This document shows positions 2,214 through 63,731 of a stretch of DNA of 64,000 nucleotides, piece by piece. The stretch lies in the IMG/VR virus record IMGVR_UViG_2541047715_000004. One strand, 5' to 3'. The translations under genes and the position numbers were made by a program. A model generated the notes under the pieces. The model did no database searches and had not been told where the DNA came from. It worked only from the letters and a program-made list of their open reading frames with translations. This DNA is from a virus (taxonomy: Duplodnaviria; Heunggongvirae; Uroviricota; Caudoviricetes). How positions within the stretch are numbered: the stretch's first letter is position 1; every line of letters starts with the position of its first letter.

Positions 2214-2447
2214 ATGATGAAAAGATTATTTCTAACAATAGCTGTTGTTCTCTCTCTTACTGGCTGCCAGAAATTGCCGACACCTATATGTTATGGTGAA
2301 GCTATCATTGGTGGACAGGAGACAGTCATACCCATATATGCTGTTAAAAAAGTGAACGACTATACCTTATACAAAGCGGGTAGCATCTATAACTGGCGAT
2401 GGGTTGGAGTAGGTGCTTTCTCATCAATCGGTTGCAATGCTGAATGA
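2214..2447 (+). CDS. small lipoprotein (candidate superinfection-exclusion / receptor-blocking protein)
   Basis: 77 aa; signal peptide with lipobox LTGC; three Cys; lies between fiber genes and lysis genes. Confidence 0.55.
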   Translation: MMKRLFLTIAVVLSLTGCQKLPTPICYGEAIIGGQETVIPIYAVKKVNDYTLYKAGSIYNWRWVGVGAFSSIGCNAE

Positions 2448-2516
2448 TAGGTAAGTACACACCTACAACAAAAGGGTGAAATGTGATATAAATCCGCCAT
2501 CCCGATTTGACTTTTC

Positions 2517-7744: not shown

Positions 7745-7803
7745 GAGCCTGTTTCTGTATATAAATAATAAGTAACTTATTAAATATATACGGAAGCAGG
7801 TCT
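7745..7803. repeat. long GC-stem / AT-loop hairpin element, copy 1
   Basis: GCCTGTTTCTGTATATA...TATATACGGAAGCAGGTC inverted repeat with TATAAATA-containing loop; second copy at 55221..55281. Confidence 0.6.
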
Positions 7804-7907
7804 TTTAAAAGACACCACCAGAACAACTCCCTTCCGTTTTCACTTCCAAAAACTGCCACCAGTCGCTATCATCCGCTCATTGTGATAAGTAAGTAACTAC
7901 CTACCGG

Positions 7908-8657
7908 GTGAGCCACATGAGCCAAATCTTTTTCGATACCATCGACAACGACCAGTACGACTTCATGACAGAGTGGAATACCGCTGTTATGGACAAGTGG
8001 GTCGCTGAAAACATTGGTTTGTCGCGCTGTAAAGATGAGGCTGAACTCTTCGAGACGAAGTGGTTTGATTACCGCGACATGCATCCTCTTATGGCCACCT
8101 GTCTGTTTACGGAGGCATACAAACGTCAGTACTCAAATATCATGCTGACGCACGGTCGCGAACACTTTGAAACAGCTCCGTTCACCACCGGGTTAAAACG
8201 CCTGCCTTATCAGGAGTTGTCGACTGCCAATAAAACGTCTCTATGGAAAGCACGCCAGTTTGCTGACCGCTATTGCTGCTCATACGACTACTTTATCTCC
8301 ACCGTTCTTTCCGCAGCTGCACGACGGCTGTGGGACAAGCTGCCGCGCCCACAGCATTTATGGCAGCCAGAACTGATTGAGATATTTGAAGAGAAATTAG
8401 CCAGACGCGCAACAACCCGTCTGGATGACTCTCTGGTTAGCTTTAAGTATATGGGAGACATGCAGTTCAACCCGATTCAGGAAAGCTATTTTGAGTGGAT
8501 TCTGGAGCGTTTGCGCACCATCCCTCGCAGTAAGCGCATACGCGCAATTTTCTCCGCTATCTGGCTAATGGAAATCGTTCCAGAGCGCCTTATTTCCGCC
8601 CACTTTCCAGAAGAACTGGAAGAAGCACGGCGGTTTATTGATCCCCTATCTAATTAA
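7908..8657 (+). CDS. hypothetical protein
   Basis: 249 aa ORF upstream of helicase gene. Confidence 0.5.
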   Translation: MSHMSQIFFDTIDNDQYDFMTEWNTAVMDKWVAENIGLSRCKDEAELFETKWFDYRDMHPLMATCLFTEAYKRQYSNIMLTHGREHFETAPFTTGLKRLPYQELSTANKTSLWKARQFADRYCCSYDYFISTVLSAAARRLWDKLPRPQHLWQPELIEIFEEKLARRATTRLDDSLVSFKYMGDMQFNPIQESYFEWILERLRTIPRSKRIRAIFSAIWLMEIVPERLISAHFPEELEEARRFIDPLSN

Positions 8658-11304: not shown

Positions 11305-11379
11305 CAATCACCTTTAAAATAAGTAGATGATTACTTATCTTTCTGTGAGAATACTTTCATCTGTTAGCTAGGAGTTGGT

Positions 11380-12156: not shown

Positions 12157-12211
12157 TCTCTCCGCGCGTCGTTTTTTACGCAAATAACGATAGGTAAGTA
12201 CAAGATTATTT

Positions 12212-14824: not shown

Positions 14825-15602
14825 AAACATATTGATAAGTATTTACTTACTTATCTTTTGTGTATAAGATGACTTTGTTTTCGTTGAGACGCGACTGTTT
14901 GAACTTAAATACAAGTGCAAACGAAGAAGTCTATCTGGCAGTAGCCTAATAAGCCAAACACCAGCGAGGTCAGTTTCCAGCCTCGTTACCGAAATGGGAC
15001 ACACTGAGCGAGTGTGATTGCAGAACGCAGGAGGGAACATTCATGTTCCCTCCGATGAAGTAACAGAATGGGCGGTTGGTATATTTTCAACTCCATATGA
15101 CTCCCGGATTCTTAGCCACTGACCGCCCATCCTGTTACGTCATTTTGTTCAATTATGTCGTTTATACTGGGTTAAAAAGCGGCGACGTAGCCCGGCTGGT
15201 ATGGTTAGCCAGCACACAACGTTGAGGCCATTACATTTTTATCAATTCTAAGGTTCTATTCACAGAGATACCGGCGAGCGTTGATATGTAACATGTTGGG
15301 CAAACATTCAATCGGAGTAGTGGCCTCAACGTTGTGAAGACGGGATTGTTGTGTAGGTTTAACCACTGTTGCCATTGGTGCCTGTTTTCACAACAAATGA
15401 TTCCATACATCACATTGTATAAATTACAAAGTAGGTGCTGTCCTCAGAAACATCATCTACTTAAAGATTTTGCCTTCTACTATTGAGCGAAGTCGAAAGC
15501 GTCTGGCACTAACGAAAAGTGCAAGTAGCGGTGCGTTTCCTGGCAGAAACTAAACCGTCGCGATTGGCACTGTTGAGTAATAAATACTGGCAGTGCTGAA
15601 TT

Positions 15603-15677
15603 GATGGTGTAGCTCAGCGGTAGAGCAGTTGGCTGTTAACCAACTGGTCGGTGGTTCGAATCCACCCACCATCGCCA
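15603..15677 (+). tRNA. tRNA-Asn (GTT)
   Basis: Cloverleaf by eye: acceptor GATGGTG/CACCATC, D stem GCTC/GAGC, anticodon loop CTGTTAA, T loop TTCGAAT, CCA end. Confidence 0.8.
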
Positions 15678-15682
15678 ATTTA

Positions 15683-15769
15683 GGGGAGTTAGTCCGTAGA
15701 GGTAGCGGTGTAGACTGTAAATCTACTGTCATTGCGACTCGGGTGGTTCGACTCCATCACTCCCCACCA
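15683..15769 (+). tRNA. tRNA-Tyr (GTA), long variable arm
   Basis: Acceptor GGGGAGT/ACTCCCC, anticodon stem GTAGA/TCTAC with loop CTGTAAA, T loop TTCGACT, CCA end; D arm atypical. Confidence 0.65.
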
Positions 15770-15773
15770 AATT

Positions 15774-15849
15774 GCCGGTTTAGCTCAGTTGGTAGAGCGC
15801 CTGCCTTGTAAGCAGGATGTCAGCGGTTCGAGTCCGTTAACCGGCACCA
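15774..15849 (+). tRNA. tRNA-Thr (TGT)
   Basis: Acceptor GCCGGTT/AACCGGC, D stem GCTC/GAGC, anticodon stem CCTGC/GCAGG with loop CTTGTAA, T loop TTCGAGT, CCA end. Confidence 0.8.
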
Positions 15850-16076
15850 ACACAACAGGAAAGAGCATTGAAAACCGCCGAGACTGCCCTGTTTTAAGCG
15901 TAAGTCCGTGCAAACGTCATACAGTGCTCTTTTCGTTGTGGTTGATGCGCAGACTGATGCGCGGAAAGAAATGCCCCAGCGACACACGAGGCGAGTTCAC
16001 ACACTGCAATGCAGTCAGTAGCCGGGGTCGCTAAGCCGGAGATCAGTACCGGTAACCACAACAATTGGAGAGTAGG

Positions 16077-16163
16077 GAGCATGGTGCTCAAGCGGTCTTG
16101 AAAACCGTCCCATTGCGCAAGCGATGATGGTTCGATTCCATTACTCTCCGCCAGACACAGCGT
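16077..16163 (+). tRNA. tRNA-Ser (TGA), long variable arm
   Basis: Acceptor GGAGAGT/ACTCTCC, anticodon stem GCGGT/ACCGT with loop CTTGAAA, T loop TTCGATT, CCA end. Confidence 0.6.
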
Positions 16164-16307
16164 TGAGCGGTTTGGCCTTTTAATCACCCAGATTAAGACT
16201 CCGCTAACATAAACCAGACCGCTCAACGCTGTGATAGACAATTACGGCAGACGTTCTTAACCATAGCTTGCTAACATCCTAGCAACACTTTTTTCAGCGC
16301 AAAATTC

Positions 16308-16330
16308 AAAGGGGCTTCGGCCCCTTTTTT
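16308..16330 (+). terminator. rho-independent terminator after tRNA cluster
   Basis: GGGGC-TTCG-GCCCC hairpin followed by TTTTTT. Confidence 0.8.
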
Positions 16331-16457
16331 ACTGGGTTGACTCCAGAATATTTCCAGGTATGGTTTTACCACTTTTGGGTCTTCATTTAGCAACGGCAGC
16401 ATTAGACTGCCTGCATGTGGGTGACAGGATGTGGCAGAAAAACATGGAGATAAGCCA

Positions 16458-17012
16458 ATGAATAAGCGCAACCTCAATATTCTTGCCTCTCTGGTAATCA
16501 TGCTCGCTCTGACGGGATGTAACGAATCGGAGATCGACAAAATTACCTTAATAGGTAGAGATAAAAGCGATCTTGCACAGAACTATAAAGCCCAGTTCCA
16601 AGAGCAAACACCCAGTATTGAGGTATTCGCTCTTCAAGATAAAAATGCACCGAATGAACAGGAACCACATACGCATGGAAATCTCATTGATGGAAAGGTT
16701 GAATCGTCTTTAACGACAAATGTCGGTAAGTATACGTTCATGCAGATCGGTGAAATGATGACAAGGGAGTACGGAAAACCGGTAGCAACGAAAGACAGAA
16801 TTTTCGACCAAGAAGCTATCTCAGGTATGGACTGTATTGAGACAAAGACCTGTGGTGCAGGCAAGTATTATGAAGTCTATCGAGGGAAGGATCGTTTAGT
16901 AATGGTGATTAACGGTGCAGGCTTTGTGAACGAAAAAGAGGGTGTAACATTGCTTTCTATCACCGATAAGATGATTAAAGTTTCACGCTTGAAAGAAGAC
17001 AAACGCAAATAG
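16458..17012 (+). CDS. lipoprotein of unknown function
   Basis: Start set at MNKRN; signal peptide with lipobox LTGC; about 184 aa. Confidence 0.55.
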   Translation: MNKRNLNILASLVIMLALTGCNESEIDKITLIGRDKSDLAQNYKAQFQEQTPSIEVFALQDKNAPNEQEPHTHGNLIDGKVESSLTTNVGKYTFMQIGEMMTREYGKPVATKDRIFDQEAISGMDCIETKTCGAGKYYEVYRGKDRLVMVINGAGFVNEKEGVTLLSITDKMIKVSRLKEDKRK

Positions 17013-17019
17013 CCATAGA

Positions 17020-17832
17020 TTGTTTAACACTGCGAGGTTAAATGTGAGTAACAGAGATGATTTTTCCCCATCGGTGAAGCGAACACTAGCCGAACGCGTA
17101 GGCTGGAAGTGCTCTTATCCTGGCTGCAACCAGACAACTGTAGGTCCAGATAGCAGTGATACAAACAGCAGGATTAATAATGGTATTGCGGCACATATTA
17201 CAGCAGCAGCGCCAGGTGGACCGAGATATGATCCTAGCTTAACCCCAGAACAGCGAAGCTCGATTGATAACGGTATATGGATGTGTCGTTCACATGGCGC
17301 ACTCATTGACTCTGACTACACTATCTATTCCGTTGAGCAATTGAAAAACTGGAAGCAGCTGGCCGAAACTCAACAATCTCTTCTGCTACAGATGACGCAC
17401 CAGGTGAGTCAGAACAATTACTCAGAAAGAGACGTCGGTGTTTTAAAAGCCATTACTGATATTTTTAATTACAACTACCTCCAAATGCTGAAGAGCGAAC
17501 AGTTCCGGGCAAAAGTTAGCACCGACATTACCGACCCTCTCTACGCATTTGATAATATTGCCCATAACCCCTTTTACAGCTTCAATGATGTTGTTTTAGA
17601 AACAATCCGTATGGAGTTGGTCGGGAAAGTGAACAACTTTTGGGCGCTGTTCAGAGAACATTCTGCTGGAGGGCTTGGGTATTATGATTATATCGATATC
17701 CCCCATATCAGACGTTTTTATCCTGATCAGGTTGAGCGCTATTACGGAATCATTAACCAAACACAAGATCTGGCGTATGAAATCAGCATAACGGCACAGA
17801 AATTACTCGAAATTAGAGCAAAACTGCCGTGA
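17020..17832 (+). CDS. HNH-motif nuclease-like protein
   Basis: CSYPGC ... AAHITAAAPGGPRYD ... NGIWMCRSHGALID arrangement typical of HNH zinc-finger nucleases; 270 aa with extra C-terminal domain. Confidence 0.55.
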   Translation: MFNTARLNVSNRDDFSPSVKRTLAERVGWKCSYPGCNQTTVGPDSSDTNSRINNGIAAHITAAAPGGPRYDPSLTPEQRSSIDNGIWMCRSHGALIDSDYTIYSVEQLKNWKQLAETQQSLLLQMTHQVSQNNYSERDVGVLKAITDIFNYNYLQMLKSEQFRAKVSTDITDPLYAFDNIAHNPFYSFNDVVLETIRMELVGKVNNFWALFREHSAGGLGYYDYIDIPHIRRFYPDQVERYYGIINQTQDLAYEISITAQKLLEIRAKLP

Positions 17833-18069
17833 GTCATGACGATATCCCTCTACATAGTAGAGGGATAATGCACAAATAATAGGTAATGACTTACCTATTA
17901 TTTGTCGGTATAGTTCTTTCATTATTCACTTAAAAGGACTCAATATGGGAAACAAACGTAAACAGGCGCGTCGCGCAGCTCATCAGGCACTGAAGTCAAA
18001 ACCATGTATCCACTACTGCGAAATTGGCACAATCATCGTTAATGAACAGCAGTTGCACGAGGTGAAGTG

Positions 18070-18315
18070 ATGAAAGTCGTTATCTACGGACGAGATAACT
18101 GTTCATACTGCAAACGTGCGGTCGAGCTGGCGAAGCAACTAAAGGGACATGGCTACGGTGATTATGAGTACATCGACATCACCACTGCCGGTATCGACAA
18201 GGAAAAACTTAGTGAAATTGTTGGTAAACCGGTAGAGACTATCCCCCAGGTACTGATCAATGGCCAACCGATTGGCGGATACACAGAACTGGCTGCATAC
18301 GTCAGCACCCTCTGA
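18070..18315 (+). CDS. glutaredoxin (NrdH/NrdC-like redoxin)
   Basis: CSYC active site near N-terminus; about 81 aa. Confidence 0.8.
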   Translation: MKVVIYGRDNCSYCKRAVELAKQLKGHGYGDYEYIDITTAGIDKEKLSEIVGKPVETIPQVLINGQPIGGYTELAAYVSTL

Positions 18316-18317
18316 TT

Positions 18318-18344
18318 TAAACGGCTCACAAGAGCCGTTTTTAT
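18318..18344 (+). terminator. rho-independent terminator
   Basis: AACGGCTC-ACAA-GAGCCGTT hairpin followed by TTTTATT. Confidence 0.7.
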
Positions 18345-18395
18345 TCCCACCAAACTCACTCCTGTTTCCCTTAAAATTCAAAAAACAACGTCTAA

Positions 18396-30082: not shown

Positions 30083-30199
30083 TTTTTGATAGATAATAAG
30101 TAAGTACTGATCTATCATTTAACAGCTCGAAAGAGCCACGAATGAACGAAAGCCCAACGCGCATAGCGCCATCGGCCAAATCACAACAAGGAGAAACAC

Positions 30200-34844: not shown

Positions 34845-34872
34845 CAAGGCGTCCTGTGGACGCCTTTTTATC
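34845..34872 (+). terminator. rho-independent terminator
   Basis: GGCGTCC-TGT-GGACGCC hairpin followed by TTTTTA. Confidence 0.7.
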
Positions 34873-34932
34873 TCTTGAAAATATATAAGTACTTACTTAT
34901 TATTTTCGCATAAAAACCACATAGGAAAACAC

Positions 34933-36815: not shown

Positions 36816-37030
36816 GTTTACAGTAAAATTTATATAAGTTAGTATCTACCTATCATGAAGATTTTTATTGAATACTTGTTACTCATCGTTTCAATAGCTT
36901 TTGTCATCGACTGCATTTTCACTGGTGTCATTCGTAAAGTCTTTTCCCCGGTGCACGACGTAGTCATAAACGCTTTGGCTATCGTGCTCGTATTTAATTC
37001 AGCATTTGATGTAATCAAAGAGGTGGCAGC

Positions 37031-40218: not shown

Positions 40219-40472
40219 CCCTCCAGATCGTATATTGGCGTAGATAGAATCTACGCCCCCTCAAAATAGCTCTCATAGCGTTCTACAGTGATCCTGTCTT
40301 ATTTTTAGTCATACAGACAAGCAAAGTTGCGCCACGATAAATAGGTATATACTTACTTATAAATTTTGTATATTAAGGCGCTCGTTTCATTCCTAATATA
40401 CCGTTATGCATAGTTGTTTACCTCCTCATTGCTCTTAGAATTTGTATCAAAATAACCACAAAGGAAAAATAC

Positions 40473-41599: not shown

Positions 41600-41791
41600 A
41601 TGAAAAGACTTGAACGAGGCCAGACGGTGATGTTTCACAAGCCCTACCCGCCACAAGGAAATCCCGTAGCGTTTTATCTTGGAAGGTTAACAAGAAAAGG
41701 CGTATTGAGGCGCAGATCCTTCCCGGCGCATACGGAGTTCAGATTGAAAGAAGGCCAAAAGCTAACACACGGTATCAGAGGTGTTATATGA
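41600..41791 (+). CDS. small basic hypothetical protein between sbcD and sbcC
   Basis: Internal ATG of ORF 41513..41791; stop overlaps sbcC start (ATGA). Confidence 0.3.
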   Translation: MKRLERGQTVMFHKPYPPQGNPVAFYLGRLTRKGVLRRRSFPAHTEFRLKEGQKLTHGIRGVI

Positions 41792-45016: not shown

Positions 45017-45089
45017 TTTCATTGATAGGTAAGTGCTTATCTATTAACATGGGCCACTATATTTAGTGGCCCTCTTTATTTGGTGATAC

Positions 45090-48731: not shown

Positions 48732-49601
48732 ATGAACTTTACCAAACTGACTGACCACCTGAAACTTGCCACCGATCGACTCATTGGATTTAAGCCAGAA
48801 CCATATGAGTTGCATGAAGGCCATGGTGTAGCCACTGAAAGTATTTACAAGATGGTCGATCAGTTTCATGAACTCTTCCAGCATCCGAGACGCGTTATGC
48901 CGACACCAGAGCTGCTTCGTCTCCGTGCAAGCCTGATTCATGAAGAAGCTGTAGTGGAAGGTATTCCAGCCGCAATGAATGGGGATATTGAGCAACTGCT
49001 GGATGCAATGGCCGACTTTTTATACGTTGGTGTTGGTACGATGGTCGCCATCAAAGGTGGTATTTCTACCGGCATGACCTATTACACGCAGGAACAGAGC
49101 ATTGATCGCTTTATGCAGACAATTTTTGTGCCCGGTAACACTGTTTTCGATGATATGGCAATGCCATTTCAGGAAGCTCGTGAGGCGTCATGTATGCTCG
49201 AAGAGCTGGCAGATAAACTTGAGAACAAGACTGTTAAGGATTCTGAGCTGATTCAGGAACTGCGCCGTGTCATGAACAAAATCTATGTGGCGTGCATGAT
49301 GACCTATCGACTGGCTGATTTCCTCGGTATCAATGTAGTCGAGCTGGTTGGCGAAATTCATCGGTCTAACATGACAAAATTATGGCCTGCTGATGTAGAG
49401 GAACGTCGCCAGGCTGTGGCCAACTGCAAATACGACTCTTCAGACCTGGGATTTCGCCATGCTGATGGTACCGATAAGATGATCGGTTTTCGAATTTCCG
49501 ATGGAAAGATTCTGAAGTCTCCAACCTATAGTGATGTCGATTTATCCTCCTTTGTTGAGCAAGCTAAAGCCTCAGCAATGTACGGAATGATCAAAAAATA
49601 A
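48732..49601 (+). CDS. hypothetical protein, possibly MazG-like nucleotide pyrophosphohydrolase
   Basis: Helical, Glu-rich repeats; position in nucleotide-metabolism block; no firm motif. Confidence 0.3.
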   Translation: MNFTKLTDHLKLATDRLIGFKPEPYELHEGHGVATESIYKMVDQFHELFQHPRRVMPTPELLRLRASLIHEEAVVEGIPAAMNGDIEQLLDAMADFLYVGVGTMVAIKGGISTGMTYYTQEQSIDRFMQTIFVPGNTVFDDMAMPFQEAREASCMLEELADKLENKTVKDSELIQELRRVMNKIYVACMMTYRLADFLGINVVELVGEIHRSNMTKLWPADVEERRQAVANCKYDSSDLGFRHADGTDKMIGFRISDGKILKSPTYSDVDLSSFVEQAKASAMYGMIKK

Positions 49602-49771
49602 TTGTAGGTAGTTATCTATCTGTGTATATTTAACATGCGTAATAAAACTCTGGAATGACTATTCGTTTTGGTGGCCTATGGCCACCATTTTTTTATCTGT
49701 CTGGTCTTGTTCTCTCAATGAATGTAAACTCACACGATGAATAAGTAATTACTTATATTTGTGAGGTTTTT

Positions 49772-54425: not shown

Positions 54426-54608
54426 CGTCCCCCTACTGAAAATAAAGCCCATAGAGAGCTTTATAGTGCTGGGTAAGCCAATCACATATCCAGCACCACA
54501 AAAACGCGCCAGAGAGCTTCTCGTTTGCATTTCTGGCGCGTTTTATTTGATTGCCAGACATAAAATCAAATGCAAAAATAGGTAATCACTTACCTATCGA
54601 GAAAGACG

Positions 54609-55220: not shown

Positions 55221-55281
55221 ATTAGCCTGCTTCTGTATATATAAATAACTACATATTAATTATTAATATACGGAAGCAGGC
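55221..55281. repeat. long GC-stem / AT-loop hairpin element, copy 2
   Basis: GCCTGCTTCTGTATATATAAATA...TATACGGAAGCAGGC; near-identical arms to copy at 7745..7803. Confidence 0.6.
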
Positions 55282-55364
55282 TGTTTTATATCAGAGACTC
55301 CCAGACCTGAACACCACTACAGAATCCACTAGAACCCCTTCCCAGACGCTTTAAAATCGATTTT

Positions 55365-55619
55365 ATGAACCACTTTAAGGAAACCAACATGTCATACCCG
55401 ACTAATGTCGTTGCGCTCGTAGAGAGCGATTTTCTGGCCCAGGCTCGTGAAATGATGAAAGATCGTGAGCAGGCTTTCAACTTGTACGAATGGGCAATTA
55501 AGTGCTTGCATCTTGGGGAGCATCGCGAACTTGTTGAACAGCTTTTAGGTGAGTTGATCAACGAGGTGTTTGCCTTGAATGTTCAACTACATGGTCGAAA
55601 AAATAATCAATCGAAATGA
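55365..55619 (+). CDS. hypothetical protein
   Basis: 84 aa ORF. Confidence 0.35.
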   Translation: MNHFKETNMSYPTNVVALVESDFLAQAREMMKDREQAFNLYEWAIKCLHLGEHRELVEQLLGELINEVFALNVQLHGRKNNQSK

Positions 55620-56205
55620 TAGATAAGTACAAACTATTCATAAAGTGAATTGTAAGTGCTAAGATCTGATAGTTTCCAGTCGTAGACTGGAGGCTCGACC
55701 TGATGGGTGGGGGTAAGCGTCACTGGCGTCAGGTTTAAAAAAGCTCACTACCAGCGTAGAACCGGCACCGTTTAGGGGTTGGGGAAGGGGGAACCAAAGT
55801 GAGCAGAGACAAGGGTCACTTTATGATTGTCGAGTCTGGGGTGTTTCGAGAGGTTGAATCCAGTACTCCCCTTCATAAAGTGTGGGAAGATCTCGGTTCT
55901 GGGGTGCTGTCATCCATAACTTCCCAAGCCTAAGCTGGCAGTAGACTTAGGTCATAACTTTTCAGGTTATGAAACGACCAGGTTGGTGAGGAAATTTTGT
56001 ACTCACCTCCCTGGGAGAGTATTACCTGAAAAGACAACCTCTCACTTCGTTCGAGGTGAACTTCACTCACTTCGTTCGTTCAGTTCAGGTTTATAAAAAC
56101 CTGTTCTGGGAAGTAATTTGTTTATTTTAATAATTATTAACACGCACGCGTGTGCGCACGCGCGAGGAAAAAAAAATCGGCGCGGCGCTTGATTCAGGAG
56201 TTTAT

Positions 56206-56796
56206 ATGACGACGAAGACACCAGCCCGATCGCAAGCAAAAACTCGCAAAAATGACAAAAACAAAAATTCTCCCCGCACCAATTCCACAACGCCTGTCGT
56301 AGAGTTCAATCCCCAGCTTAAAACCGTGAAAATCTTCAGTGATGGCTCTTGCCTTAAAAATCCGGGTGGCCCGGGCGGTTACGGTATAGTTCTCCAGTAT
56401 GGTGGTGAGGAACGCGAGTTCTCAGATGGTTTTCATAGCACCACCAATAACCGCATGGAGATGATGGGGGCACTTATCGGGCTGGAGCGTTTGAAATATC
56501 CATGCAACGTTATTTTGTACTCTGATAGCCAGTATCTGAAAAACGGCATGACACAGTGGATGAAATGGTGGAAACGCAATGGATGGATGACTTCTGACAA
56601 AAAACCGGTAAAGAATGTTGATCTGTGGAAGCGTCTGGATGAGGCCGCAAGTCGACATAATGTTCGCTGGAAGTGGGTTAAAGGTCACGCCGGGCATCGT
56701 GAAAATGAAATATGTGATCGACTCGCGAAGATCGCAGCTTTTTCAGCAGCAGATATGCCTCACAAGAAAGATATTGGTTTTGTTTATAACAAGTAG
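56206..56796 (+). CDS. rnhA: ribonuclease HI with basic N-terminal extension
   Basis: KIFSDGSC...GGPGGYG and C-terminal HAGHxxNExxDxLA RNase HI motifs; about 40-aa Lys/Thr/Asn-rich N-terminal extension; start ambiguous (table ORF from 56152). Confidence 0.8.
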
Positions 56797-56944
56797 TAAG
56801 TAAGTGTTTACCTATCATTTTAAATCATGTATCTTATCAGCGTCAGGATGACAATGTGTCGGTAAGACACAGTTCCAGGATGGAACGAGAAAGGCGGCTG
56901 GCGATCGCCAGCCGCAACTCTTTCTGACACTGGATGGAGTCCAC

Positions 56945-60614: not shown

Positions 60615-63600
60615 CTATATCTGCCCACCTACTCCTTTGAACTTTTCAATAAACGTGACGATTTTCTGGAAAACGGTCTGTTTTTTCGTTTTATATTGCG
60701 GGTTTAACGGACTAAGTTTTGGTAATGTCTCGTTTAATTCTGTGCCATTTTCGGTGGCGTATTCGCGTTTTAAAGACGTGCGAATATAGCGTTTCGCCGC
60801 CTCTTCATTGAGATTTTCTTCTTTTATCAATGCTTCTGCTTCACGTTGCTGTTCGCGTTGAGCAAACGTAAAGAATGCCTCAATGATACTGGCTTTGTCT
60901 GGTAAATCATCCAGGTTCGTTTGCTGAATAAAATCGACCACCAGGCCCTCTTTCGCCCGGTTCCCCAGGCTTGAACGAATTAAGCGTTTGACCTCTTCGA
61001 TCATTTCGCCCTTGCCTTTATTTTGTCTGTTGTGTTCGAAAATCAGTCCAAGGATATAATCCAGGTTTATTTCCTGAGACTTCAGCAAATCGACCTCAAA
61101 AACTACGTCATCCCAGTCAGTGGTTGATTTCTCTTTTTTCTCAGCTTCTTTCTCACGGCGCTGCCAGTCGCGAATATCGTTATAGGCAGAACGATAATCC
61201 TGAATCTTGCGTTCAGCAGGGAGACGAATTGTTTGCAATTCAGCGAACTTTTCATCATCCACATAATGTTCTGCTTTGAATTTTTCTACCGCAACAGGAT
61301 CGCTAAGATCGATTTGTTGCAGGGCTTTCAGCGTGGCAAATTCATCATAGTTTTGCAGGATGTTCTCGGCACGCAGGTATTCACCAAACAGTTTTACGAA
61401 GTCTTTCTTCTCTTTTTCACTTTCAATACTGGCAGGGTCAGGGAACCGTTGTTCCAGTTCTGAAACTACTGCCATAAAGCCGCGTTTAGCTTCACCAGTG
61501 GCAGCATCTGTAAAGCCTTCCATATACTCAGCATAACTCTTTTCTAACACCACATTTTTAGTATTTTTATCACCAAACAGCGTTATGGCATCAATGGTTG
61601 AGCGTTCCAGATCCCGAAAAGTGACGATGTTACCGAAGGTTTTAGTAGCGTCATAAATGCGGTTGGTACGGGAGAATGCCTGCATCAGGCCGTGAAAACG
61701 CAAGTTTTTATCGACGAATAGCGTGTTCAATGTTGGAGCGTCGAAGCCGGTTAAAAACATCCCAACGACAATTAACAGATCGATATCCTGATTTTTAACC
61801 CGTTGGGCTAAATCACGATAGTAGTTCTGAAAACCGTTACTGTCGGTGCTGAAGTTAGTTTTAAAATAGCTGTTATACTCACGAATTGCAGCGTCAAGAA
61901 ACTCTTTAGCACTGCTGTCCATTGCGCTGGTATCAAAAGTTTCATCGGAAATTTCACCAATGGCATTTTGTTCTTCATTGGCGGCAAAGGAGAAGATTGT
62001 TGCAACACGCAGCGGTTTATAGGTAGCCGATTTATTAGCTGCTTCCTCTTGTAACCGTTTAAACGTCGCGTAATAGGCTTTCGCGGCATCCACGCTACTC
62101 ACTGCCAGCATGGCATTAAAGCCTTTGGAACCTGGGAAAGTACGGTGGGTCTTCTGGCGGAAGTTATTCAGAATATATTGCGTAATTTCCTGTATACGCA
62201 TGGGATGAAGAAATGCCTGCTGATTTTCAGCCGCACTCAGTTTTTTCTCGTCGGTTTCTGTCTCTAAAGATTTAAACTGTGGCCGCACATCGTTGTAGTC
62301 CACCTTGAATTTGAGCACTTTTTCATCACGAATCGCATCGGTAATTACATACGAATGCAATTCACGACCAAATACGCTGGCGGTCGTTTCTGAGCCTAAG
62401 GCGTTTTCCGGGAAAATAGGTGTGCCGGTAAAACCAAACTGATAATAGCGTTTGAATTTCTTCTTCAGGTTTTTCTGCGCTTCTCCAAACTGGCTGCGGT
62501 GACATTCATCAAATATAAACACCACTTGCTGATTGTATACAGGCAGGTCGCTTTCTGCTTTCATCAGGTTATTAAGTTTCTGAATAGTGGTGACGATAAT
62601 TTTGTTATCGTCCTTATCCAGATTGCGTTTAAGACCTGCGGTATTTTCCGAGCCGTTGACGCTGTCTGGCGAAAAACGCTTATATTCATTCATGGTCTGG
62701 TAATCGAGGTCTTTCCTGTCGACCACGAAGAAGACTTTATCAATAAAGTCCAGCTCTGTTGCCAGACGCGCGGCTTTAAAGCTGGTGAGGGTTTTACCTG
62801 AACCGGTAGTGTGCCAGATATACCCACCGCTTTCCGGTTTTGACCAGTTCTTCGCTGTAAAGGAACTCTTAATTTTCCACAGAATGCGCTCAGTGGCGGC
62901 AATCTGGTACGGTCGCATCACCAGTAGCGTTTGGCTAACATCGAATACGCTGTAGTTCACTAAGACATTAAGCAGGGTATGTTTCTGGAAAAAGGTGGCG
63001 GTAAAGTCTTTGAGGTCTTTAATCAGCGTGTTGTCTGATTTCGCCCAATTCATGGTGAAGTCAAAACTGTTTTTATCGCGCTTTGTCGTGTTGGCAAAGT
63101 AACGGGTATCGGTGCCGTTGGAAATGACAAACAGTTGCAGATACTTAAACAGAGAATTTTCGCTGTTAAAACTCTCTTTGCTGTAACGATGTATCTGGTT
63201 AAAGGCCTCACGAATCGCCACGCCGCGCTTTTTCAGTTCGATTTGTACCAGCGGTAAGCCATTAACCAGGATCGTGACGTCATAACGGTTAGCATGAGAA
63301 CCCGTCTGTTCAAACTGCTGGATAATCTGCACCTTGTTGCGCATGAGATTCTTTTTATCTATCAAATAGATGTTCTCAAGACGCTCGTCATCAAAAATAA
63401 AGTCGCAAATATAGTCGATATGGATTTTACGGGTCTTATCCAGGATGCCATCGCTCGGGTTATCCAGATACTGCTCCGTGAAACGCCGCCATTCGCTGTC
63501 ATTAAACACCACACCATTGAGGTTCTGAAGCTGTTCCCGAACGTTGGCCAGCATCGCCGACTGAGATTTTACGGAAATAAATTCATAGCCCTGATTCCGC

Positions 63601-63731
63601 AGATCCTGAATCAGTTCACGTTCCAGGTCCGATTCGCTCTGGTAGCTGTCGCCTGTTTGCTCGGCTTTGATGTACTTATCAAGAACGATAAAGTTATTGG
63701 ATTCAGCAATGGTGTGTGTCTGATGAGTCAT
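60615..63731 (-). CDS. hsdR: type I restriction enzyme R subunit (HsdR)
   Basis: 1038 aa; N-terminal PD-(D/E)xK-like nuclease segment ([19 protein letters not shown]), helicase motif I TTGSGKT, motif II FDECHRS. Confidence 0.85.

Follow-up and report, generated by a model that had tools for sequence, protein, structure and literature searches.

KorB, a protein of the ParB family encoded by the IncP plasmid RK2, exerts global silencing from palindromic OB operators at about a dozen intergenic positions. The c repressor of the Streptomyces phage phiC31 is reported to bind conserved inverted repeats (Ingham et al. 1994, Wilson et al. 1995). In the phage-plasmid P1, about 22 operators of the C1 repressor are scattered round the genome (PMC8546580), and mycobacteriophages of cluster A (L5-type) contain about 30 stoperators in short intergenic gaps genome-wide, including the late genes; their immunity repressor blocks promoters and also halts elongation (PMC9283540, PMC6550527). 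Here we describe a family of 20-bp palindromes in a stretch of 64,000 nucleotides of virus DNA (IMG/VR record IMGVR_UViG_2541047715_000004), which we refer to as the window; positions are those of the window unless another genome is named. On balance, these palindromes are probably the operators of an XRE-type regulator encoded at 19624-20010, and would constitute a dispersed global-repressor system. That they are operators for some DNA-binding protein encoded by the element itself can be proposed with good confidence.

A family of palindromes between the genes of an SSU5-like phage-plasmid

Megablast analysis of positions 15000-23000 revealed about 98% identity with Escherichia phage Cyrano (OV696614; pLF82 of E. 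coli LF82). Further E. coli elements, 107-109 kb in length, were matched at 98% too. A wider nucleotide search with the window identified Salmonella phage SSU5 (~79% identity) and Klebsiella phage-plasmids (~78%). Judged by these matches, the 64-kb window is part of an SSU5-like phage-plasmid. According to the annotation, nearly all lytic genes of Cyrano and SSU5 are located on the plus strand; the minus strand carries most of the genes known to be expressed in the Cyrano lysogen, which encode toxin-antitoxins, RepA and the putative repressor (PMC9928086).

The consensus of the family, ATA[A/G]GTAAGT·ACTTAC[C/T]TAT, is 20 bp long and is a perfect palindrome through its centre. Screening the window for the 20-bp consensus ATAGGTAAGTACTTACCTAT resulted in 7, 11 and 17 sites with at most 3, 4 and 5 mismatches, respectively, compared with means of 0, 0 and 0.18 sites in 100 Markov shuffles. 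We also constructed a position weight matrix (PWM) of 24 columns, starting from the window and refining it on the Cyrano and SSU5 genomes. At a cut-off score of at least 14, it detected 20 sites in the window, 29 in Cyrano and 27 in SSU5, with about 0.2 expected in shuffled sequence, and these counts did not change for cut-offs between 10 and 16, demonstrating a clean separation from background. The sites are predominantly intergenic: 27 of the 29 Cyrano sites lie between genes in a genome that is 87% coding and 13% non-coding, and the centres of 17 of the 20 window sites are in non-coding DNA, which makes up 9.4% of the window. They are found in the head, tail and lysis regions of Cyrano as well as in its replication and nucleotide-metabolism regions. 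In many cases a stop codon precedes the start of the site by 0-15 nt, and two of the three frames of the motif are closed by stop codons on both strands. Some sites are positioned 1-3 nt from a start codon or just ahead of a terminator hairpin, with no visible promoter.

The dispersed intergenic family reported in the preliminary description, with copies just after a stop codon and before the next start, was therefore borne out, and the coordinates needed limited revision. Twelve of the 14 positions given there correspond to strong sites, most of them within a few bases (Table 1). The copy placed at about 22697 is weak (score 9.3) and overlaps a better site at 22716 (17.6), and the one at about 7767 falls within the loop of a separate and far longer hairpin element (7748-7800). 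Four sites were added (2447, 36834, 49600 and 55619). The copy from which the analysis departed, at 17879, reads in context AAATAATAGGTAATGACTTACCTATTATTT.

The hairpin element at 7748-7800 belongs to a second repeat class of about 55 nt that reads CCTG(y)TTCTGTATATA...TATATACGGAAGCAGG and whose AT-rich loop contains a motif-like half-site. Its twin occupies 55224-55282, and the Cyrano record carries a third copy at its 3' end (L006:42840-42880). The predicted folding energies are -26 to -27 kcal/mol, with z about -6 to -7, and the transcript level of the Cyrano par operon drops sharply across the first copy. These hairpins are possibly bidirectional terminators.

Loss of conserved position in related elements had been named beforehand as an observation that would speak against a repressor with scattered operators. 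The positions are kept in SSU5: 17 of the 20 window sites have a site at the orthologous SSU5 position, and their 20-mers are 84% identical, compared with 70% for the 30-nt flanks (Wilcoxon p=3e-4). A half-site that is degenerate in one of the two genomes is often intact in the other, as for 2447 and 55619. The motif thus appears to be under purifying selection. The site at 17879 is carried, as a perfect palindrome, by a window-specific insertion (16431-18070) that is absent from Cyrano and SSU5 and that contains open reading frames (ORFs) of 193 and 270 aa plus a small ORF; the 193-aa and 270-aa ORFs have no Pfam match.

Two exact-pattern scans of IMG/VR for contigs bearing the motif returned many SSU5-like contigs, plus contigs of 58-63% G+C with several sites each. 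The latter show no nucleotide similarity to Cyrano or SSU5; they encode homologues of terminase, portal, capsid, helicase, primase, DnaE and UvsW at 30-58% identity. The form present in these contigs, [A/G]TAAGTAAGnnCTTACTTA[T/C], is found at the same kinds of junction, namely between the terminase and portal genes, between the capsid gene and a downstream terminator, and before ParB_N genes. The retention of an AT-rich 20-mer between the genes of genomes with 60% G+C is strong evidence that it has a function.

Two elements of Acinetobacter baumannii carry different versions of the motif. Plasmid pDD520 (NZ_CP075322) contains 12 copies of AGTAAGnnCTTACT (GTAAG..CTTAC) and none of the GTCAG type. 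The element NZ_CP155459, in contrast, has no GTAAG-type site. It contains nine copies of AGTCAGtaCTGACT (GTCAG..CTGAC), with one mismatch at most, and of these nine, three are found in the divergent control region belonging to its XRE gene. Because every copy has changed, symmetrically, between elements of the same host species, neither a host factor nor an RNA structure can account for the sites; the change shows an element-encoded protein with altered specificity, and connects the dispersed sites with the control region of the XRE gene. The specificity of the motif is thus set by the element.

The two arms of the palindrome behave as independent units. The number of Watson-Crick pairs per site was 6.70, and 6.73 ± 0.13 when the right halves were permuted (53 unique sites, p=0.60), and no position pair showed significant covariation between the arms in the same 53 sites. 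Left and right halves are equally conserved, without significant bias (sign test p=0.44). Each half-site approximates the consensus independently of the other, which is what a protein dimer on DNA would lead one to expect. When 16 window sites were folded as RNA, about five gave a stable structure (-7 to -11.5 kcal/mol, z down to -6.6) and 11 gave a weak one or none; the high-scoring sites at 30096, 36834, 56796 and 7885 reached 0 to -2 kcal/mol, no better than shuffles. Runs of Ts follow the motif at 19 of 67 sites, and are mirrored by runs of As preceding it at 22 of the 67. Because of the independence of the half-sites, the absence of folding of the best sites and the symmetry of the flanks, we conclude that the family behaves as a two-fold symmetric DNA recognition site.

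The putative XRE-type regulator and its control region

The protein encoded at 19624-20010 matched Pfam family HTH_19 with an E-value of 7.8e-4 and 19.7 bits, below the cut-off of 30.2, and had no NCBIfam match. A profile built from seven homologues matched PDB entry 8bny, annotated as 'immunity repressor' (E=1.3e-4). The single-sequence AlphaFold2 model (pLDDT 75) contains helices at residues 11-22, 28-34, 41-47, 55-64 and 69-78, and a Foldseek search with this model retrieved C.AhdI, the N-domain of lambda repressor, Stl and a Salmonella phage repressor with probabilities of 0.97-1.0 and E-values that were all above 0.04. By profile and predicted fold, it is thus a putative XRE-type helix-turn-helix (HTH) protein that falls below curated thresholds.

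Homologues were detected by tblastn in 995 plasmid records, the hosts being E. coli, Klebsiella, Enterobacter, Salmonella (~107 kb, pHCM2-like), Yersinia pestis (pMT1-like), Acinetobacter and Shinella, and the gene adjoins an integrase gene in most of the records listed. From Enterobacteriaceae to Acinetobacter and Rhizobiaceae, every motif-bearing lineage sampled has an XRE homologue, except phage SSU5. In the high-GC contig 3300046474, a homologue of the same length and 36% identity has full motif sites on both sides, and the homologue on the Shinella plasmid NZ_CP132310 is likewise flanked by full motif sites. In the alignment of the seven homologues the HTH segment is kept, and residues S24, Q28, A32, G36, N41 and G49 are invariant. 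The protein of the GTCAG-type element NZ_CP155459 has FKRPN where those of GTAAG-type elements have YKNxN or FNNAN. This N39-to-R change is located directly before the recognition helix predicted by the model (residues 41-47).

The palindrome GGTAAGTGCTTACC, previously placed at 20050-20068 in the XRE control region, is indeed present there, at 20042-20055. It covers the presumed transcription start, and is the only exact GTAAGnnCTTAC in the window. We propose that this core palindrome may be an autoregulatory operator. In lineages encoding an XRE protein of 66% identity, the block "TTTACA-17-TAATAT-c[g/a]GTAAGCACTTACC" is kept and the rest of the leader has diverged. Full or switched sites are next to the XRE gene in Shinella, in contig 3300046474 and in Acinetobacter.

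The first gene of the divergent, rightward operon, a 70-aa ORF, has no family match in Pfam or NCBIfam, and a small divergent gene is present at the syntenic position in the Acinetobacter and Shinella relatives. The gap between this ORF and the XRE gene (20162-20235) contains a GGTAAG half-site (20162) and a CCTTACC half-site (20229) about 60 nt apart. They flank the presumed rightward promoter and are possibly split operators.

With respect to what is expected of the dispersed-operator regulon of a temperate-phage master repressor (P1 C1, phiC31 c or L5 gp71), we thus found a specific motif in many (>10) copies, far above chance; copies that are intergenic or promoter-sited, at the boundaries of transcription units; and a candidate operator in the control region of the regulator's own gene, the core palindrome over the start of the XRE promoter.

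Promoter context, expression data and competing explanations

Sigma-70-like sites are strongly depleted in the first 60 kb of the window (1-60000), with 6, 21 and 14 sites per 20-kb segment compared with about 30-33 expected for each, and several of the few plus-strand matches overlap a palindrome. Analysis of the region from -60 to +100 around 66 sites of E. coli-type genomes and 116 sites of high-GC genomes revealed no element at a fixed distance beyond positions -4 to +23. As nothing is conserved outside the surroundings of the motif, a fixed-distance promoter architecture was rejected. About half of the sites have a -10-like TAnnnT at motif positions 18-23. This -10-likeness is equal on both strands (32 vs 34; 42 vs 36), and we therefore consider it a by-product of the palindrome. 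The combination of a -35-like sequence (positions -6 to -1) with a -10-like one was more frequent in the direction of the gene than in the reverse direction, both in E. coli-type genomes (8 vs 1, p=0.04) and in high-GC genomes (15 vs 3, p=0.008), and a subset of sites has a -35 exactly 17 bp upstream of the -10 in the motif. An example from a high-GC relative is ggcTTGCAA-GTAAGTAAGCACTTACT-TACAAT; a second class there has gcgcTATAAa immediately upstream of the motif. Sites in the spacer or -10, or over the start, of promoters are in the positions of a repressor.

Two kinds of protein encoded by related elements are noted here. Shinella, pDD520 and the high-GC contigs have a sigma-70-family gene; in these distant relatives it lies between a MoxR/CobS-like ATPase gene and dnaE and has a product of about 215 aa (24762-25418 in Shinella NZ_CP132310, L244; 15101-15766 in A. 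baumannii pDD520, L245; and L146:5346-5990); at this position the window contains only a 67-aa ORF (24015-24218). A phage sigma factor was rejected as the reader of the motif, since a hidden Markov model of the relatives' sigma-70-family proteins found no homologue in the window, Cyrano or SSU5. Outside the region covered by the window, at 100780-101301 (L006:35281-35802, minus strand), Cyrano encodes an FljA-like protein ('repressor of phase-1 flagellin', PF03614, E=1e-80) that is conserved in Cyrano and SSU5 and has a weak Hfq-like match at its C-terminus. FljA is a post-transcriptional regulator.

Public expression data were taken from the per-gene RNA-seq table for Cyrano in the supplement of PMC9928086, whose conditions include lysogen and macrophage 6-h samples. 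In the lysogen, the XRE gene is expressed about ten-fold above background and the plus-strand genes are near background. In the macrophage 6-h samples CYRAN_46, the small divergent ORF, rose from log2 4.3 to 10.8, and CYRAN_56 and CYRAN_60, which directly follow the predicted promoter-embedded sites at 34881 and 36834, went up by 5-6 log2 units under macrophage stress. In MB6, the levels of CYRAN_56 and CYRAN_60 were 3.6 and 3.65 log2 units above those of CYRAN_55 and CYRAN_59, respectively. CYRAN_34, following the site at 11319, was 2-3.4 log2 units above its upstream neighbour in all conditions, and at the Cyrano gap equivalent to 12190 the transcript level was down by 2.4-4.3 log2 units. 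Co-directional gaps bearing the motif showed larger absolute expression steps than all co-directional gaps (p=0.003), and in the lysogenic B6 condition levels dropped across motif gaps (p=0.0016 vs all gaps). A general step-up at the sites was not seen in the RNA-seq data; if anything, there were step-downs in lysogens. These expression steps, from data close to background, are suggestive: they fit sites that mark the boundaries of transcription units, and hint at a roadblock.

An RNA hairpin is the alternative to operators that the preliminary description itself had raised, in the form of an AT-rich attenuator. The palindromes might act as attenuators or terminators, as RNase III sites, or as targets of an RNA-binding protein such as the FljA-like one, whose conservation in Cyrano and SSU5 would suit this reading, as would the five window sites that fold well, the T-rich tracts after some of them, and the frequent transcript drops across motif gaps in lysogens. 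Nevertheless, the arms do not covary, the best-scoring sites are not the ones that fold stably, and the T-runs downstream have their mirror image in the A-runs upstream. Moreover, the palindrome is continuous through its centre, which a loop does not need, the terminator scan of the window did not call the palindrome sites, and no Rfam family matches them. The stable stem-loop, kept by compensatory change and followed by a U-tract, that marks an intrinsic terminator is not a property of the family. A terminator or attenuator hairpin was therefore rejected for the family as a whole, and RNA-based explanations are in our opinion largely refuted and very improbable. The probability of a host transcription factor or nucleoid protein is slightly smaller still, and this explanation too is largely refuted. 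The invariance of the motif across elements of many enterobacterial hosts would agree with a host protein, but the same motif is present in elements of hosts with ~60% G+C (Shinella and related), and a host factor was rejected as the binder because of the two A. baumannii elements with different motifs.

A promoter element read by the RNA polymerase holoenzyme, with either the host sigma-70 or a phage sigma factor, also seems improbable. It would account for the -10-like TAnnnT, for the -35 at exactly 17 bp in a subset, and for the scarcity of sigma-70-like sites elsewhere in the window, and the sigma-70-family protein of distant relatives and pDD520 would provide a reader. It is contradicted by the equal -10-likeness of the reverse strand, the lack of any fixed-distance element outside the motif, the absence of a homologue of that sigma factor from the window, Cyrano and SSU5, the difference in motif between two elements of one host species, and the sites located 1-3 nt from start codons or just before terminators. 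More weight, although we still consider it unlikely, has to be given to a different element-encoded binder, with the XRE protein binding its own core palindrome only. This could be the 70-aa Cro-like protein, a KorB-like ParB_N protein or a lytic activator. Such a binder would explain why SSU5 retains sites without an XRE gene and why the outer ATA/TAT, required at the dispersed sites, is missing from the copy at the XRE promoter. Two ParB_N proteins, encoded outside the window, are conserved at ~37% in distant motif-bearing relatives, and their operon always has a site 14-37 nt before the start codon. The rise under stress of genes beside some sites is what an activator would bring about. On the other hand, the dispersed sites and those of the XRE region were switched together in NZ_CP155459, full sites flank the XRE gene in distant relatives, and SSU5 is also devoid of the small divergent ORF. 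The positions over spacers, -10s and starts are those of a repressor and not of an activator, and the sites precede early and late modules alike.

Table 1. Palindrome sites and regulatory features of the window. Score, PWM score of the site; earlier list, whether the site was included in the preliminary description.
Feature	Position	Strand	Score	Earlier list	Context
Gene for 128-aa XRE-type HTH regulator, candidate binder	19624..20010	-			Weak Pfam HTH_19 match, profile, predicted fold, homologues
Core palindrome GGTAAGTGCTTACC (20042-20055)	20039..20058				Directly downstream of XRE promoter -10 (TTTACA-16-TAATAT, minus strand)
70-aa divergent ORF, possible Cro-like partner	20262..20474	+			First gene of rightward cobT/cobS/dnaE operon
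Site ATAGGTAAGTACACACCTAC	2447..2466		25.7	added	Overlaps stop of ORF 2214-2447; 50 nt upstream of holin-like gene (2517); SSU5 positional orthologue at 27474 is a perfect palindrome
Site ATAAGTAAGTAACTACCTAC	7885..7904		25.5	listed	3 nt before ORF 7908-8657; SSU5 orthologue 33600
Site ATAAGTAGATGATTACTTAT	11319..11338		24.1	listed	In spacer of sigma-70-like promoter TTTAAA ... TATCTT
Site ATAGGTAAGTACAAGATTAT	12190..12209		20.2	listed	Left half perfect, right half degenerate; 2 nt before ORF 12212
Site ATAAGTATTTACTTACTTAT	14835..14854		28.8	listed	Upstream of tRNA cluster (tRNAs 15603-15846); identical in SSU5 at 41773
Site ATAGGTAATGACTTACCTAT	17879..17898		26.0	listed	Within 30-bp palindrome; in window-specific insertion, no Cyrano/SSU5 counterpart; overlapped by sigma-70-like ATGACT-17-TATAGT
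Motif-like sequence, uncertain member	21368..21387		19.0		Coding, in cobT-like gene; better copy at same SSU5 position
Weaker site ATAGATAATGATATATTTAT	22716..22735		17.6	corrected	Overlaps still weaker site 22699-22718 (9.3)
Site ATAAGTAAGTACTGATCTAT	30096..30115		30.4	listed	Upstream of gp32-like SSB gene; promoter spacer TAGATA-17-TATCAT; no fold
Site ATATATAAGTACTTACTTAT	34881..34900		27.8	listed	Fills spacer of TTGAAA-17-TATTAT, best sigma-70 promoter of region (10/12 positions match); follows terminator 34846-34866; identical in SSU5
Site ATAAGTTAGTATCTACCTAT	36834..36853		27.2	added	1 nt before ORF 36855; promoter-like elements overlap; identical in SSU5; 0 kcal/mol
Site ATAGGTATATACTTACTTAT	40341..40360		27.3	listed	Upstream of sbcD-like gene; SSU5 orthologue 63080
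Site ATAGGTAAGTGCTTATCTAT	45025..45044		30.7	listed	Between stop codon and terminator-like hairpin 45051-45072; upstream of nrdA; SSU5 orthologue 67775
Weaker site AATTGTAGGTAGTTATCTAT	49600..49619		16.0	added	At stop codon of ORF 48732-49601; SSU5 orthologue 72357
Site ATGAATAAGTAATTACTTAT	49737..49756		20.1	listed	15 nt upstream of thymidylate synthase gene
Site ATAGGTAATCACTTACCTAT	54578..54597		28.3	listed	11 nt upstream of adenine methylase gene; TG-extended promoter-like -10 ends at site start
Site ATAGATAAGTACAAACTATT	55619..55638		22.1	added	Good left half only; SSU5 orthologue with both halves
Site GTAAGTAAGTGTTTACCTAT	56796..56815		30.8	listed	Overlaps stop of ORF 56152-56796; no fold

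Two other features of the window are recorded here. The minus-strand gene at 60615-63731 encodes a 1038-aa R subunit of a type I restriction enzyme, HsdR (HSDR_N, SWI2_SNF2, EcoR124_C), and appears to be cargo in place of the Cyrano sequence found there. A full-length Rfam cspA thermoregulator (27978-28396, minus strand; 185.7 bits) is located upstream of a cold-shock-protein-like ORF.

A proposed repressor model and its relation to known systems

The idea put forward in the preliminary description, a single repressor with operators scattered through the genome, gains support from the independence of the half-sites, the positions kept in SSU5, the distribution of XRE homologues, the core operator at the XRE promoter and the joint switch in NZ_CP155459, which also link it to the XRE gene. 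In the model that we favour, a dimer of the XRE-type protein would bind the 20-bp palindromes, the candidate form of the target being ATAAGTAAGTACTTACTTAT. In the plasmid (lysogenic) state the protein would occupy about 20 sites in the window and about 29 per genome, and would thereby silence virus genes, as the sites punctuate the plus-strand lytic genes for replication, recombination, nucleotide metabolism, the methylase and lysis and, outside the window, those for head and tail. Where a site overlaps a promoter, be it at the -10, at the transcription start or across the spacer into the beginning of the -10, its occupancy would exclude RNA polymerase; promoter-less sites after stop codons or before terminators may be roadblocks to read-through, and the weaker, core-only copy over the start of the XRE promoter would provide negative autoregulation. 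The existence of the family, its intergenic and conserved placement, the independence of its half-sites and of hairpin formation, and its element-set specificity are established by these results, and we infer the identity of the binder, repression as the direction of regulation, and the roadblock function. Induction would release all transcription units together. Induction of Cyrano is genotoxic (PMC9928086), and the XRE protein has no S24 cleavage domain, which makes an anti-repressor route likely.

Several observations weigh against this model. SSU5 has at least 27 sites, yet the XRE gene, the integrase and the small divergent ORF all lack a homologue there. It may be a repressor-less lytic derivative whose sites persist through their overlap with promoters, which would fit; a different binder would fit as well. 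The copy at the XRE promoter does not have the strongly conserved outer ATA/TAT (PWM 9.6) and may be read differently, and the sites could belong wholly or in part to another protein of the element, for instance a Cro-like one. A canonical sigma-70 context is present at only ~12-20% of the sites, and the expression steps at motif gaps are not distinguishable from those at other gaps of at least 40 nt (p=0.24). An immunity operator that is invariant from alpha- to gamma-proteobacterial elements would be unusual for immunity repressors. Finally, the correlation of N39-to-R with the GTCAG motif rests on one lineage; with only 30% overall identity between the two Acinetobacter proteins, this residue is no more than a lead.

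A broader reading of these data is possible, and we hold it tentatively. The XRE regulator and its 20-bp palindrome may form a near-frozen regulatory code shared by the SSU5 supercommunity (E. coli, Klebsiella, Salmonella pHCM2-like and Yersinia pestis pMT1-like elements), the Acinetobacter AB group and relatives in Rhizobiaceae. This code would combine promoter operators with elongation roadblocks and confer family-wide homoimmunity, and rare switches from GTAAG to GTCAG at all copies together, with N39-to-R in the recognition helix as a candidate determinant, would create new immunity groups. If so, co-resident or incoming relatives would cross-repress each other.

SSU5-like phage-plasmids are common in Enterobacteriaceae and Acinetobacter, and their silence as plasmids and their switch to the lytic state are essentially undescribed; our literature search found no description of the motif or of operators of the SSU5 group. 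The operator and the candidate repressor would provide a testable map of transcription units and predict which elements are mutually immune, and could explain how phage SSU5, without the repressor module, may behave as a lytic phage. In addition, the natural switch between GTAAG and GTCAG offers a case in which the co-evolution of a regulator and its regulon of about 30 sites can be studied.

Dispersed-operator control is already known in phages; the system described here differs in its symmetric 20-bp site, in the protein family of the candidate regulator and in its near-invariance across distant relatives. The resemblance to P1 lies in a phage-plasmid with one repressor, many operators over the promoters of different operons, and copies at the repressor gene. 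However, the P1 operators are 17 bp long and asymmetric (ATTGCTCTAATAAATTT), whereas those described here are 20-bp palindromes, and our candidate is a short, putative XRE-type HTH protein. Moreover, the late genes of P1 use a separate activator, and here the same motif precedes early and late modules. For phiC31, an inverted-repeat operator reportedly takes part in the autoregulation of the repressor gene and recurs, highly conserved, between genes genome-wide, as we propose here; the motif, the protein family and the host are unrelated, the phiC31 repeats are said to be 17 bp long and located at early promoters, and this comparison is one of descriptions only. The OB operators of KorB share with our sites that they are recurring intergenic palindromes, and ParB_N proteins are conserved in the SSU5-like group. 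Nonetheless, OB is 13 bp long and unrelated in sequence, and the ParB_N genes are located outside the window and linked to the motif only by the one conserved upstream site. As to stoperators, several of our sites are likewise found at stop codons where no promoter is visible, and in lysogens transcript levels tend to be lower after them. Stoperators, in contrast, are 13-14 bp long, asymmetric, orientation-dependent and bound by a monomer, whereas the palindromic consensus, the equal halves and the symmetric flanks of the family described here are those of a site without a fixed orientation.

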